Of a stretch of DNA of 33,909 bases, positions 2,008-27,560 are shown piece by piece. The stretch's first letter is position 1; each line of letters begins with the position of its first letter. The stretch is taken from positions 1 through 33,909 of the forward strand of contig JBBMKC010220573.1 of the NCBI GenBank assembly GCA_037834085.1, written 5' to 3'. Origin of the DNA: Bipalium vagum. Lineage: Eukaryota. A program made the translations under genes and the position numbers. The notes below the pieces were generated by a model, which saw only the letters and a list, made by a program, of their open reading frames with translations, was not told where the DNA came from and did no database searches.

Positions 2008-4086
2008 TTAATTAACTTTGGCAGATGTTTTTAACATTGGTAATTCATCTGTACCTTTCTTCCATAAATTGCAAGCTTGAAGCATTCCTATTTCTCGAAC
2101 TCCAGGAGTACGAAAACCAAGCCTACCTACAAAAGTAAATGTGTCTTCAAACTCTTTCATTGACGAATTAGTTGGATAATTCATTTTTTGAATTTCATCT
2201 ATTTTACCAAACATAACGAAACTTTTCAAACTTTTTAGGAGTGTTTCCTTATAGACCCCTGGTATATCTTTACTGTCTGACTTACATTCACTGAGTTCAT
2301 CCTGTAAGAAAAAGTTCAAATCACACAGAGATCCAGATTTCATCGGTGGAACAGTAAAACGATATCCCCCATCTATTATTCTATATATTGGACTATTAAC
2401 TATGTGTGTGTTCACTTGCAAATATTTAGCAATTGCATTATAAGGACATACCACTCTCAAATCGGATATAATGGCTTGAAACACAACTTCAAATCCCAAA
2501 GGAACAATGTCTTTATCTACATTCTGGTCGTGGATACTTTTATTTTCCACAAACTTTATATATTCATTATAAGCTGTATTAATTTCTTTATTGATGGCAA
2601 CTTGAGATATTCCTGTTTGATATGTCAAAAGCCCTAATCTTGTTTTAGTGAACAAATCGCTTTTGGTTAATTTATAATTTTTGAAAAGGGAAGCTCTTTC
2701 AAAATAAGGCATATAATCAATTTTTGACATGATAACCGTTGGTATATCATCAATGTCTGAACCTGCTTTCATTACTGATTCAAGCGGACTCAAAATAAAA
2801 TTGTCTTGCTTTTCTACAAGACTTTCTCGACTTTCGAATATATTTGGTAACTTATTAAAATATTTATCGGCCTGGAGCCAATCAATGGGGGTATTGTTGA
2901 GAAGTGTTTCGGATGTATGATTCTGGAGACAATTAAATATGTCTTCAATTTCCGGGAATATGTTACATGAAATTTGCGATGAAGAATATAAATCATAGAA
3001 TGGACTTCTAATAGGTAAATCTGGAACAAAAGTGGAACCGTCAATTAACCATATCTTGGAAAACCATTGATTGGTTTTCTTCATAAGCATATATAATATT
3101 CCCGTAGTAGCACCGCTTTCTTCAGCCAGCAGAGTTATGTTATTTTTATCCCCACCAAATTTCTCTATGTTATTATAAATAAATTCCATTGCTTTTAATA
3201 CATCAATAATGCCCACATTTGGAGGTGATTTCATGAAATCAAAATTTGCGAATCCTAAAACACCTAATCGGAAATTTATAGTGATAAAAAGTGCATTAAT
3301 TTCCTTTAAAATTGAATCTCCTACCTGAAAAGGTTTATTTCTCAAAAAAGTTCGGCCTGTTAAGACAATAACAACGGGTAAATGGTTTTTGATTTTACGA
3401 CCAAAAAAACCAGGACGTTCTGAAGGAAGTTTGATATTTATTGTTAAGCAACTATCTATTCCGTCAATTTCTAATGAGTTCTCTGAAATCTGTTTGCAAT
3501 TTCTATATGGCAATGTGCTAAAAAAGTACAAACGACCATTATCAAAACGTTTTTGATCTAATTCCAAATTGACCCAATAGGAATTATAACAATCTACAAA
3601 TGTTAACAAAGGTCTTGGTTTATTGAAATGGAAGTTTGTTAATGGTAAGCTGGCGTATGGTACTCCTATAAATTCTTTAATGTTATAACGAATAATAGGC
3701 AATATAGTGGCACAGAAAAGAACTACTGAATCGGAAGGGACGTCATTTCTATTAATCTCTTGGTCTACCAAATGCCACATCTTATACAAATAAAAATGAC
3801 TATAAATAGATAAGATAATACTCAGAATTCCTAGAGCACAAAATATTGAATAAGAAAATAAATGAAAAGCATTTATTATTTTCCATCGAAATCTTGATGA
3901 AAATAAACTCTGTATAGATATTGGAGGTTTTATAATTATATTATCGATATTTGTATGTCGAATAAGATTTAAAACCCGTTCTTTTTCCTGATTCCTTTTC
4001 CTCTGAGAAACATCATCTTTACCCAAAAGATTATTATCAAAAGAATCTTCTCTATCATAATCACCATATTGATCTTCAACGCTCAT
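2008..4086 (-). CDS. Neurotactin-like type II membrane protein with a probably inactive carboxylesterase/cholinesterase domain; single coding exon, 692 aa
   Basis: Uninterrupted ORF. Charged N-terminus, then one hydrophobic helix (~aa 72-100), then carboxylesterase motifs FIGVPYA, DSCLTINI, INFRLGVLGF and NVGIIDVLKAMEFIYNNIEKFGGDKNNITL. GESAG is replaced by AEESG and the HGGG oxyanion loop by LTGR. IISDLRVVCP resembles neurotactin-type proteins. Confidence 0.85.
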   Translation of the reverse strand: MSVEDQYGDYDREDSFDNNLLGKDDVSQRKRNQEKERVLNLIRHTNIDNIIIKPPISIQSLFSSRFRWKIINAFHLFSYSIFCALGILSIILSIYSHFYLYKMWHLVDQEINRNDVPSDSVVLFCATILPIIRYNIKEFIGVPYASLPLTNFHFNKPRPLLTFVDCYNSYWVNLELDQKRFDNGRLYFFSTLPYRNCKQISENSLEIDGIDSCLTINIKLPSERPGFFGRKIKNHLPVVIVLTGRTFLRNKPFQVGDSILKEINALFITINFRLGVLGFANFDFMKSPPNVGIIDVLKAMEFIYNNIEKFGGDKNNITLLAEESGATTGILYMLMKKTNQWFSKIWLIDGSTFVPDLPIRSPFYDLYSSSQISCNIFPEIEDIFNCLQNHTSETLLNNTPIDWLQADKYFNKLPNIFESRESLVEKQDNFILSPLESVMKAGSDIDDIPTVIMSKIDYMPYFERASLFKNYKLTKSDLFTKTRLGLLTYQTGISQVAINKEINTAYNEYIKFVENKSIHDQNVDKDIVPLGFEVVFQAIISDLRVVCPYNAIAKYLQVNTHIVNSPIYRIIDGGYRFTVPPMKSGSLCDLNFFLQDELSECKSDSKDIPGVYKETLLKSLKSFVMFGKIDEIQKMNYPTNSSMKEFEDTFTFVGRLGFRTPGVREIGMLQACNLWKKGTDELPMLKTSAKVN

Positions 4087-4399
4087 GAAAAATCAAGGAA
4101 ATTGATTAATATTTGAATTTATTCTCATTTATAAATTTAAAATAGATTAATTTTAACAAATTGTATGTAATTATTTAAATCTTAAGTAGTAGATCATAAC
4201 AGTAAAAATATGAAGTTATCAAAATGGAAAGATTTTATAGTGACAAAAAATAATAAAATTTAATTAGAATTTTACCTTAAGTTTTAGATATTTAATTTTA
4301 ATTTGTTTTGTTTAAATTTATACAATGTAGCAACTTTTCAAATTCTCTTCAAATCAATTTAAACAATATTAGTAAACAATTAAAGAAACTTTGGAAATC
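4087..4399. promoter_or_regulatory. Probable bidirectional promoter / shared 5' region
   Basis: Only 313 bp separate the divergent ATGs at 4086 (-) and 4400 (+). Confidence 0.5.
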
Positions 4400-22870: not shown

Positions 22871-25089
22871 AAAAAATTTTTTTTACACCATCTTTTTTTA
22901 TATTTGAACTTTATTAAGTCACTCATTTTTATTTCATAAATATAAATATATAAATAAATATATAATTAATTTTTTATAATTTATATAAATATTAATATAT
23001 ATAATTTCCAAATTATTTTATTAATAATTTCAATCCTATCGCAAAAATAATAAAATTATAATATTATTAATTATATAATAATATTTTAAAATTATATTAT
23101 ATATTAAATCATTCGTTTTGTGGTACAAAAATAAAATTATGAAAGAAAACATCTGCTGACTTCGCTATTTATCATCCCATTTTGCAAATGAATATTTTTA
23201 ATTTTATATATTACAAAAAAAATAATGTGACTTCATTGAGAATAACAACAATATTTAAAATTTTCCCATTTTTCAATGTTACACATTTTCTAATAGAATC
23301 ACAATGATGCAGTAGGAATCATGTAATATTCCCCTATTCGTATCATGGGAAATGAATTTAATTAACAAACTACTAGCGGTATTAAATAACCAAAACATGA
23401 GTGGGGTAATACTAAGGAAACTCTGCATTTTAATGCTATTTTTCTGATACATAGTTCAATGAAAGTCGATGGAAAAGAGCAATAATAATATTGAACCTGC
23501 CCTATAACCGTTCCCTAATACGGAAGATTCATGTAGCTGTATGGTTGCTAAGCCTGAGCAACTTGCTTCATCAGCTCCTGTATGATGACGACGACGACAA
23601 TGATGCTGCTGATGCTGATGACAGACAACTGGGAATTAGGAGTAGAACTGATTTCAAAGGACAGAACGAAAATGAGGTCATTATTTTATAGGATTATTAT
23701 GAATGCAGTATGCTATGGATATTTTATCAAATGGCAAGAGGATTAAAAGAAAATTGATCTCCTCGTAGAGAATAATTTGAAAGCTTGAAAAATGTGAAAA
23801 GATATATTATTTTAATTTCATGATTAATAATCTCCCGATTTAAAAGCCAGAATATAGGCAATAATTATTATTTATTTATTTCATTATATTTTTTTTACGA
23901 GGTTTCTAGAAATATTTGACAATCACTCGATACGATGTCAAAAGGCGAAGGTCAGTCGTTCTTTCGTCTGGAGTACAACAGTAAAATTTTTTTGACTGAC
24001 ACAATCTAAAAGGCACGATTTAATACGTGTCAAATAAAATCTCTAAAATATAAATTAAATAATTTTTTATGCTGAGTAATTTTATGAATTCTTGATTTGA
24101 TTTTTAAAAATTTTTTTTTCATTATATAAAAAAATATCGGCAAAAAAAATTATTAATTAAAAATTAAATTTTATTTTAAATAACTATCTATCTTTACCCC
24201 TTTTCTCATATGACTTCAACTAACTGGGTATGTATAAAATTTTTAAAAAAATTTTCAATTATTCATAATATCCAAATGATAATCTTATTTCTTTCAACCA
24301 TATATTGAGAATCTTCCTATGAAGAGTGAGATAGTAGATAATAATATTATTATTAACAAAATATTAATTAATAGTGGTATGATTGCCAGCCATAGCATTA
24401 TTTAAGGGCAGTATCAGCTGCAGAAAAATTGCAATCTCCCTTGAAGATGTCTAAAAATAATCATACTTTTGCCCAAATAGACGTTTTATTTTTATTAATG
24501 TCTATAGGTTAAAATTTCAGAAGTTCAAGACTTTTTTAATAATTTAATTTTCTGACATCACATTCAAACAAATTTATCAAATCATAAGAGTTCTATTATT
24601 AAATATTAATAAATACATTTAAATTCTAAATATATATAGGGTGTTAGTTAAATATGGGGCAAAAAATTAGGAATGATTTCTTGCATTATTATATGAATAA
24701 TTATATAATAACACCTTTTTAGGTCTTCTCGTTTCAAAGATACACATTTAAAGATTTTCAAAACACAATTAATTTCAATACGCATAATATTTATTTACAT
24801 TTACTTATTTTCAGGAACTTTTGAAAATGATCTCCACCAGCTAATATGCAGGAATCCAATCTTCTCATCATTGAATAACACATTCTTTCGAAAACAGCAG
24901 GAATGTTCCTTATGGAATTGCATCAATTGACTATCCGAATCCTTAAGTCATTTTCATTTTCCATTAGCATTTTATAAATTAACGATTTTAAATAGCCCCA
25001 TAAAAAATTATTCAACGGGATTTAAGTCTGGAGATCGAGCAGGCCATGCATGCGCAATCATGATTGTGAGATTTATTGAAAATTAGTCG

Positions 25090-25137
25090 GGGGATGTAGC
25101 TCAGCAGTTAGATAAGTGCATGCGCATGTGAAAGGTC
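25090..25137 (+). tRNA. 5' 48 nt of a degenerate tRNA-Ala(CGC)-like gene (pseudogene, split)
   Basis: GGGGATGTAGCTCAGCAGTTAGATAAGTGCATGCGCATGTGAAAGGTC: Ala acceptor 5' strand, A-box, CGC at 25123-25125 and AGGTC variable loop. Confidence 0.75.
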
Positions 25138-26112
25138 AAACCGAAAGAAGCCAAATTGATTTCGAAAATAATCCATAATTTTATCAATCTTTCATGGAAC
25201 TTCAATTAGAATAATCAATCAGTGCTGGTTGCTTCGAATTTTCAATTGCTCAATCATCTATCTTTACAAGGCCTATATTTGATGGAGAAATATTAATCTC
25301 TTCAGAACTAGATTGTATTCTATTCAGATCAATGCTCGACACGGCTCACCATTCAAAGGAAGCCGAAGATGTGATGAACCAGAGGAGACTCTGTCCCATG
25401 TTCTGGTGGTTGTAATCAATCGAGAATATTTCAAAACTGTCGTCACAATACCATCCAAGATTATCTCGCCGAAAAAATCAAAGCAAACACTACAGCTAAA
25501 GTATTTTTTCAACACAGAGACCCAATATATCAACTCTTCGCAACGAGTAGATCTAAAAATAGAATTTACCAATCAAAAATATCTTCTCATAGACGCAAAA
25601 TGTTATTTTGAGACTGAAAACATGTTTTGGAATCATGAAAATTATATCAGGCATTATGAAGATCTGTTAAATAAAAATAAAGAAAATTTACCACAATGGA
25701 CTATAATTATGGATATATTTGCCTTTGGATGTTTGGGATCATAGCAAACACGGAATGACGATATTCTCAAAAGCCTACAGTTTTCAAAGCGAAAATCAAC
25801 CGAAATCGAAAAATAATGCGTATCTTCAAACATCAAGTGAAGTGCAAGTCAGTGGAACTTTCATGGAAATGTCGGAAAGCTATCGATGAATCTTTCTGAA
25901 CTAAACGACATAGCTAATTATGATTCATATAGCCAGGAAAAAGAAGAGAAATCTAACTGACCGTGATGAAGAATTAATATAAAAATGTGACAACTGAAAA
26001 TTTTGTGAAAGCTCTTTTTATTTTATTTTTAAAAATGCCATACTAAGCTCACAGAAATGTGCTGATGATTTATGTGCATGTACATATAAAAACTTGCAAA
26101 AAATACCATTTT
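25138..26112 (+). mobile_element. 5'-truncated RLE-type non-LTR retrotransposon (NeSL/R2/R4-related), decayed
   Basis: Zinc-knuckle remnant RRCDEPEETLSHVL. Restriction-like endonuclease RVDL..LLIDAKCYFE..YEDL..FAFGCLGS* with TAG at the conserved W. Frame continues through further stops to about 25960, then a ~150-nt 3' UTR. Confidence 0.85.
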
Positions 26113-26137
26113 GCTCGTTTGAATGCCGGTATCTCCG
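26113..26137 (+). tRNA. 3' 25 nt of the same tRNA-Ala-like gene
   Basis: GCTCGTTTGAATGCCGGTATCTCCG: B-box GTTTGAAT (from GTTCGAAT), and TATCTCC pairs with GGGGATG including G3:U70. TTTT at 26143-26146. Confidence 0.7.
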
Positions 26138-27127
26138 AATAATTTTCAAAAATGATATTTTAAATTTAGTGACCCACGAACATGTCTACTAAAATCTGCT
26201 GGTGCTCCATCATGCATGAACCTCATGAATTTTCTCATTGCCAACGATATATCCTCAATCAACTCAGGTAGCCTATCTTCCAATGAACTGCGGTATAATT
26301 CAGGAGTAAGTGTTCCTGGTAGGATTACAGGTCTGATTAAAAAATCACCCACAACTCAAACTCAAACGTTCAGTGAAAACTTATATTGGAAATAATCTTC
26401 ACGTGTCTCATATGGATTTTCTTCCGGTCATACATTATTATAATAGAAATTTATTTTTGAGAAACTTTCTTCATCGGTAAACAAAATTAGACTCATTAGC
26501 TGAGAATTTTGAGGCAATGTTTGTTTCAGCCATGGATAAAATTCTACTAGTATCTCTGTTAAGAAGTTCTTAAATGCGTTGAATTTTGTATTCGAAAAAC
26601 ATTCATTGTCTCAACATTTTCCAGTCTTATTACCTACATTCAAGGCGTTTGCTATTATTCTAATTGAAGTGAGTGAATCTTCATCTATAATATCACACAT
26701 CTTCAATTTCTATTATTCTTTTTGTTTCGTGAAGATACCAATGAATTCTTTCAAATGTTTTCATATCAGGAAGATGACTTTTTGAAAATCGCTCAACGTA
26801 CAACTCCTTATCCTTTAAAGAATTCTCATTCGCTAACTCATATTAAAAATACATGTCCATCCTTTTGACGTTTGTATAAAGATTCGTGATGAGATTTAGA
26901 CGTATTCTGAGTATTTATTTTATATACATCTACAGATTAATTTTAAATAAGCCTTACTTTTAGAATATTTAAACAAAAATTACTGTTTTTTGATGATACT
27001 AAAGATTTCATCTATGCATTTCCAAATTCATATTGGAAAGGTGTTATGATGTATTTATATATATAAACACCCAAGGAACAAATCCTTAAATTTTTGGCTC
27101 ATGTTTAACTAACACACTATATATATA

Positions 27128-27560
27128 TAGGTTGCGTGAAAAGTTATAAAAACCACAAGTATTAAACAATTTAACAAACAGTATTCCTATTCTATTTTAA
27201 TATAACATTTAAAATTTGTTTGAACCAATCACTTTGTTACTGTTTAGCAAATGTTTGAATTTGATTTGTCATTTATTATTTTTAATATGGAAGAAATTGA
27301 ATATAGTGAAGTCATCATATTTTTGTTCGGAAGGATTAACTGCACCAGAAATTCACAGTAAAATGGTTAAAATATTTTAGAGATCTGAACCCTCATTTTC
27401 TACTGTCCATCAATGGGTTTTGGAGTTCAAATGCCGTCAATTAAATATAGAAGATGATACACGCAGCTGATGTCCTAAAATACCACTAAATTGGAAATCA
27501 TTGAACGAATACATGGAATTTTACAGAGTATGAATAAAGTAAGTATCCGATTTTAAAATG
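27128..27560 (+). mobile_element. 5' half of a mariner related to the 21371-22340 copy
   Basis: MEEIEYSEVIIFL/EGLTAPEIHSKMVKIF/FSTVHQWVLEFKCRQLNIEDDTRS*CPK helix-turn-helix region. Confidence 0.75.

Follow-up and report, generated by a model that had tools for sequence, protein, structure and literature searches.

The window (the whole 33,909-nt stretch of DNA that was analysed) carries on its minus strand a dead Tc1/mariner transposase that is interrupted by a cassette, and the cassette holds a short tRNA-like unit with a longer element inserted into it (Table 1). The host transposon has a DD41D motif and is presumably a Tc1/mariner element of the Visitor type. A copy search yielded 42 candidates, with other copies 72-85% identical among the matches listed, and the spacing between the last two catalytic aspartates was 41 in one of nine copies scanned, the sister copy L082. 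The initial annotation had placed ATGAT at both ends of the cassette, and these coordinates were correct; it had also proposed that the empty site would hold a single ATGAT. In 11 uninterrupted copies of the transposon, one pentamer was found at the site in each, never two and never with the insert, reading ATGAT in six copies (shifted by one base in one of them) and a one-base variant in the other five. Because uninterrupted copies have a single pentamer at this site, the ATGAT pair represents a true target-site duplication (TSD). A separate deletion of ~20 bp in the transposase (window ~25050-25055) ends 6-7 bases to the left of the TSD. Elsewhere in the window, an uninterrupted 694-aa frame at 2008-4092 (minus strand) belongs to the carboxylesterase/neuroligin family (PF00135, E 1e-37). 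In the best COX1 of the assembly, AAA codons occupy 5 of 5 positions at which mouse COX1 carries Asn, and T makes up 48% of its sequence. The AAA usage agrees with the mitochondrial code of flatworms and echinoderms, and the T-rich strand favours a flatworm, so that a flatworm host is likely. The assembly contains at least three different COX1 sequences (L130, L131 and L132), of which L132 looks different from the others and may come from prey, a contaminant or a numt.

Table 1. Features of the interrupted transposon and its cassette, with mobile elements assigned by sequence comparison (coordinates of the window)
Feature	Position	Strand	Basis or remark
Host DD41D transposon, 3' part, TIR ~24626-24674	24626..25059	-	Dead; ~20-bp deletion near 25053
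Left TSD, ATGAT	25060..25064	+	Sequence and empty-site comparison
Assigned solo LTR, 5' part, family A, begins TGT	25065..25137	+	Similarity to LTR copies
Internal inverted repeat, left arm, prolongs acceptor stem	25076..25088	+	Sequence, predicted fold
tRNA-Ala(TGC)-derived core, 5' part, A-box ~25097-25108, degenerate anticodon loop	25090..25137	+	Comparison with genuine tRNA-Ala, ARAGORN
Assigned R2-type (RLE) non-LTR retrotransposon, 5'-truncated and decayed, end of ORF and 3' UTR, lying just before B-box	25138..26116	+	
Longest uninterrupted stretch of the RLE reading frame (nuclease region, 153 aa)	25283..25744	+	
Assigned solo LTR, 3' part: B-box/T-arm, acceptor strand, right inverted-repeat arm 26137-26149, decayed ...CA end	26117..26151	+	
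Right TSD, ATGAT	26152..26156	+	Sequence and empty-site comparison
Host DD41D transposon, 5' part, TIR ~27082-27130	26157..27130	-	Sequence comparison, copy search

When the genome was searched with the left arm of the cassette, 2,058 first-look candidates emerged and 40 of them were scored; the query included the ATGAT flank, so the hits are biased for TSD composition. The 5' part of the window unit was 92-94% identical to 10 LTR copies, which were picked by similarity to this same part, and 85-90% identical to four interrupted LTR copies. The uninterrupted unit is 114-115 bp long, rather than the ~112 bp first given for it, and runs from a TGT start to an ACA end (...CTAACA). The ...CTAACA end has decayed in the window copy, whose identity rests on the family because its terminal CA is absent and its A-box and B-box are mutated. 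Of the 24 elements whose ends were intact, 16 were flanked by an exact 5-bp TSD and 22 by one with no more than a single mismatch, whereas 4-bp or 6-bp TSDs were found in none of the 24 and cross-paired control flanks matched in 10 of 552 cases; the flanks of L030 and L114 were unmatched. This count leaves out the window copy, 3' LTRs, copies lacking an end and, of 27 elements, the three whose ends had decayed (L003, L018 and L064). The mobility proposed for the unit in the initial annotation is borne out by these dispersed copies with 5-bp TSDs at many sites, and a one-off repair insertion was rejected because the unit is present in high copy number with such TSDs.

At 11 loci, the LTR end was followed by a PBS, an internal part of 97-146 bp, a purine tract and the start of a second LTR, and at three loci (L016, L102 and L119) the whole LTR-PBS-PPT-LTR element lay inside one 5-bp TSD. 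Complete elements measured 351 and 380 bp. The paired LTRs of one element were identical at 114 of 118 columns in L114 and at 96 of 100 columns in L002; the polypurine tract precedes the 3' LTR and is weak in L002, whose internal part is shortened. At the level of sequence, these comparisons identify the window unit as a solo LTR of a Helenus-type TRIM, family A. A second family, B (L075, L077, L102, L114 and L119; e.g., G000:C3981), has an LTR of 117-118 bp and 5-bp TSDs, and has the tRNA-Ala core, the PBS and a motif of the internal part in common with family A.

The 13-bp inverted repeat that had been annotated around the tRNA-like sequence is present with one mismatch, and in the predicted fold it lengthens the acceptor stem. 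It had led to the unit being read as a disperser of tRNA genes, either a DNA element of the MITE kind or a hairpin precursor that had been retroposed; a real inverted repeat, high copy number, a fixed TSD length and the lack of CCA or poly(A) agree with this. This reading is now highly improbable: in 10 of 10 copies the repeat lies inside the LTR, 11 bp from the 5' end and ~4-6 bp from the 3' end, the ends of the unit are TG...CA, no tRNA isotype can be called, and complete copies consist of two LTRs with a PBS and PPT between them, within one 5-bp TSD. A MITE was accordingly rejected. A tRNA-derived SINE, with an A-rich or repeat tail and variable TSDs, was rejected on the fixed ...ACA end and the fixed 5-bp TSD.

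The LTR core of L006 was identical to the genuine tRNA-Ala gene L071 at 60 of 74 columns, with a rearranged anticodon arm and an anticodon loop unlike that of genuine tRNA-Ala(TGC). ARAGORN assigned an isotype to none of 15 LTR loci, four of which were called as tRNA-???, whereas the genuine tRNA-Ala genes L071 and L080 were both called. Neither ARAGORN nor Rfam reported a tRNA across the window, as expected because the pseudo-tRNA is split by the insert. The LTR thus has a tRNA-Ala-like core without a usable anticodon and is no working tRNA gene; a functional gene, with cloverleaf, 7-nt anticodon loop and isotype, was rejected on the 15 loci, and with it the claim that the unit spreads tRNA genes.

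The PBS complements the 3' end of a genomic tRNA plus CCA at 18 of 18 nt in family B and at 17 of 18 nt in most family A copies, and the primer tRNA is likely tRNA-Arg. ARAGORN called no tRNA at any of the five loci of the putative primer gene, which are partial genes. Two fragments of the 3' end of the putative primer tRNA (L125 and L126) carry a genomic CCA and are reverse-transcribed pieces of mature tRNA. A search for an autonomous partner through the PBS found no ORF of at least 90 aa downstream in any of the 20 loci read among 24 PBS matches; 18 of these 20 belonged to TRIM family B and two to another LTR without a visible ORF. A third LTR type (L104 and L115; G000:C48291, C204625) has a CTAACA end and the identical 18-nt PBS, lacks a tRNA core over the stretch examined, and is a lead for the autonomous helper.

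The element inserted into the window LTR is 979 bp long, and the end of its ORF, which is broken by frameshifts and stops, carries a CCHC knuckle and a PD-(D/E)xK nuclease. Its 3' end lies at 26116, four bases beyond the 26112 given in the initial annotation, and the 5' junction has cost the LTR 4 bp. Of this element only the nuclease end is present in the window, and its RT is known from family copies: a search of the genome with the insert gave 466 candidates, and longer copies contained an RT domain (PF00078, E 5e-14). The best PDB matches of the RT region were R2 proteins (E 2e-18), and the C-terminal CCHC and nuclease region was also R2-like, with an R2 protein as best PDB match (E 8e-6). 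Pfam returned only a sub-threshold RmuC match for the window frame, and a protein homologue search with the RT piece found three relatives. By these matches the insert is classed as an R2-group (RLE) non-LTR retrotransposon, which we take to resemble the NeSL clade, R5/LIN lineage. At L093:3738-7700 (G000:C214219), a TRIM that has both LTRs carries an RLE copy of ~4 kb in the first of them, the 5' LTR; the copy's 5' end is seemingly kept and its RT region is missing through an internal deletion.

To fetch junction loci, queries free of LTR sequence were used, and six duplicate or window loci were dropped. A script found the 3' end of the RLE element joined to the LTR just before the B-box at 42 of the 47 non-redundant loci; when two loci found through the LTR were removed, the junction was present at 40 of 45 by script and at 44 of 45 by eye, four of the 44 having a shortened LTR tail and L067 being the one without it. 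On the 5' side, 15 of 21 interrupted LTR 5' halves mapped onto the RLE element at differing entry points, with a few target bases lost, and the interrupted elements ranged from 225 to 1,574 bp, each with its own TSDs. Since the entry points differ and the interrupted elements vary in length and have their own TSDs, the insertions are independent. The LTR and RLE fragment might instead travel as one composite, the fixed junction going back to a single ancestral insertion, and interrupted LTRs do retain outer 5-bp TSDs (L023 and L024); there is very little chance of this, because the 5' entry points vary among the 15 mapped junctions and the identical junction occurs in LTR family B as well as at L127, a real tRNA gene. 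One insertion, at L002:1721-2096, reads as a 3' LTR followed by filler, a piece of RLE 3' UTR and a second segment from B-box to LTR end, with ~28 bp of target duplicated, not deleted. Among 20 aligned RLE copies, 12 were ~88-95% identical and eight, including the window copy, were ~77-83% identical to everything, which suggests two waves of copies at one site as judged from divergence. LTRs of TRIM family B had also been entered (L073 and L107).

Exact matches across the genome identified 117 filled junctions and 649 empty sites, both lower bounds, giving an occupancy of exact LTR sites of ~15% (117/766). As the initial annotation had supposed, the unit creates new targets for the site-specific retrotransposon. 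Among the 100 exact filled junctions listed, 98 continued into LTR-type sequence and none into tRNA-Ala-type sequence. Exact matching for RLE junctions in T-arms not of the LTR type gave two matches, L127 and a candidate, L129. Genuine tRNA-Ala 3' ends were found three times (four matches, one of them LTR-type), and one of the three, L127, was filled with the RLE 3' end at the identical base; its downstream flank is common with the intact tRNA-Ala gene L080. Because L127 is filled at the identical base, we infer that the RLE nuclease would recognise T-arm sequence common to tRNA-Ala and the LTR. Real tRNA-Ala genes are probably undercounted, because the assembly consists of 272,664 contigs and tRNA arrays may be collapsed.

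The hundreds of TRIM LTR copies host nearly all RLE insertions found. It could be argued that the TRIM LTR has become the target that the RLE element prefers, with real tRNA-Ala genes receiving spill-over only, since nearly all listed junctions run into LTR-type sequence, two LTR families have been entered and both putative RLE waves used the identical site. We regard such a switch as doubtful, because the filled share of genuine tRNA-Ala ends (one of three) stands against the ~15% of exact LTR sites, although these numbers are tiny and possible collapse of tRNA arrays bears on them. There is no sign that true tRNA-Ala genes are avoided, on the same tiny numbers. The data taken together make it very probable that the cassette is the solo LTR of a TRIM with a tRNA-Ala-like core, and that this LTR holds an insertion of a site-specific RLE element.

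In the history that we propose for the solo LTR and its insert, a TRIM of ~330-360 bp, primed by a tRNA (likely Arg), would have been integrated by an autonomous LTR helper with a 5-bp stagger and would have entered the DD41D transposase, duplicating ATGAT. Recombination between the LTRs would have reduced the TRIM to one LTR. The RLE element would have made a nick in the T-arm sequence and entered there through target-primed reverse transcription, with four target bases lost and a stop after 979 nt; LTR-LTR recombination and RLE insertion could have occurred in either order. The LTR core would drive Pol III transcription, and an RLE insertion, by parting the A-box from the B-box, would silence the promoter of that LTR. 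The LTRs, which are far more numerous than tRNA-Ala in the assembly, would take most RLE insertions.

Helenus elements are described as TRIMs with tRNA-derived LTRs, or 'TRIMp3', and their reported TSDs are 4 bp in animals and 5 bp in fungi and plants, with Pol III transcription from the LTRs unvalidated in the available text of that paper (Kojima, 2024; PMC10886601). Like Helenus as described there, the window family has two short LTRs, a tRNA-like core with A-box and B-box, a PBS, a PPT and no coding capacity, its size falls within 311-1,263 bp, solo LTRs are many and the tRNA is non-functional. It differs in its host, which is probably a flatworm and so belongs to a phylum that the text and tables of PMC10886601 do not include, and in its 5-bp TSD, which is within the family range of 4-6 bp and contrasts with the 4 bp of animal Helenus; the available text of the same paper mentions no target-specific element inside Helenus LTRs. 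Cassandra and Ajax, the TRIMs that contain 5S rRNA sequence, likewise have a piece of a Pol III gene in the LTR, and Ajax has 5-bp TSDs in an animal, as far as PMC10886601 describes them. The piece is 5S-derived in those elements and tRNA-derived here.

RLE families specific for tRNA genes are known from planarians and Trichomonas, including LIN15_SM (tRNA-Arg), LIN25_SM (tRNA-Glu) and NeSL-1_TV (tRNA-Pro), and in the S6 Fig of the same source Polinton and SINE sequences also appear, as secondary sites, in the rows for LIN25_SM and LIN26_SM (Kojima and Jurka, 2015; PMC4640811, in its available parts). The insert resembles these families in combining an RT with a restriction-like nuclease and in its fixed 3' junction inside tRNA sequence, and NeSL-1_TV (PMC4640811, available parts) in its T-arm insertion and in a 5' boundary after GGTCCCG, as seen in L024 and L093. 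It differs in its tRNA-Ala-type target ('tRNA-Ala' has 0 occurrences in S6 Fig of PMC4640811) and in that nearly all filled sites found here are pseudo-tRNAs in TRIM LTRs. LINEs of the Tx1 clade also target other transposons, with Tx1 in Tx1D and Tx1-Mar in Mariner-N4_AMi, and Tx1-8_Crp and Tx1-4_AMi target LTR retrotransposons (available text of PMC4494074). In both systems one mobile element serves as the main landing site of another; the Tx1 elements of that source use an APE-type nuclease, whereas the element in this genome is of the RLE type, reaches its site via a captured tRNA promoter and also enters a real tRNA gene. A literature search, with Repbase and subscription journals outside its scope, found no RLE element targeting TRIM LTRs and no planarian Helenus. 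Within the literature searched, all pieces are of known kinds, and the novelty lies in the host group, in the 5-bp length of the TSD and in TRIM LTRs serving as the main landing site of an RLE element that targets tRNA-Ala.

A parasite-on-parasite loop is a tentative and rather unlikely extension of these data: an RLE element targeting tRNA-Ala would have adapted, over at least two waves, to the tRNA promoter captured by the TRIM, whose hundreds of harmless sites would spare the few real tRNA-Ala genes from insertion, and the insertions would curb the TRIM by parting A-box from B-box. For annotation, hundreds of these LTRs are prone to miscalling as tRNA pseudogenes or SINEs. Helenus is extended to a likely flatworm, and the 5-bp TSD points to a helper unlike that of the 4-bp animal families. 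The pair of elements also provides a countable system, with at least 117 filled and at least 649 empty sites, two LTR families and two putative RLE waves, for asking whether target specificity drifts towards a decoy. The findings indicate that a small tRNA gene family need not cap the copy number of a retrotransposon specific for it when another mobile element multiplies the target.
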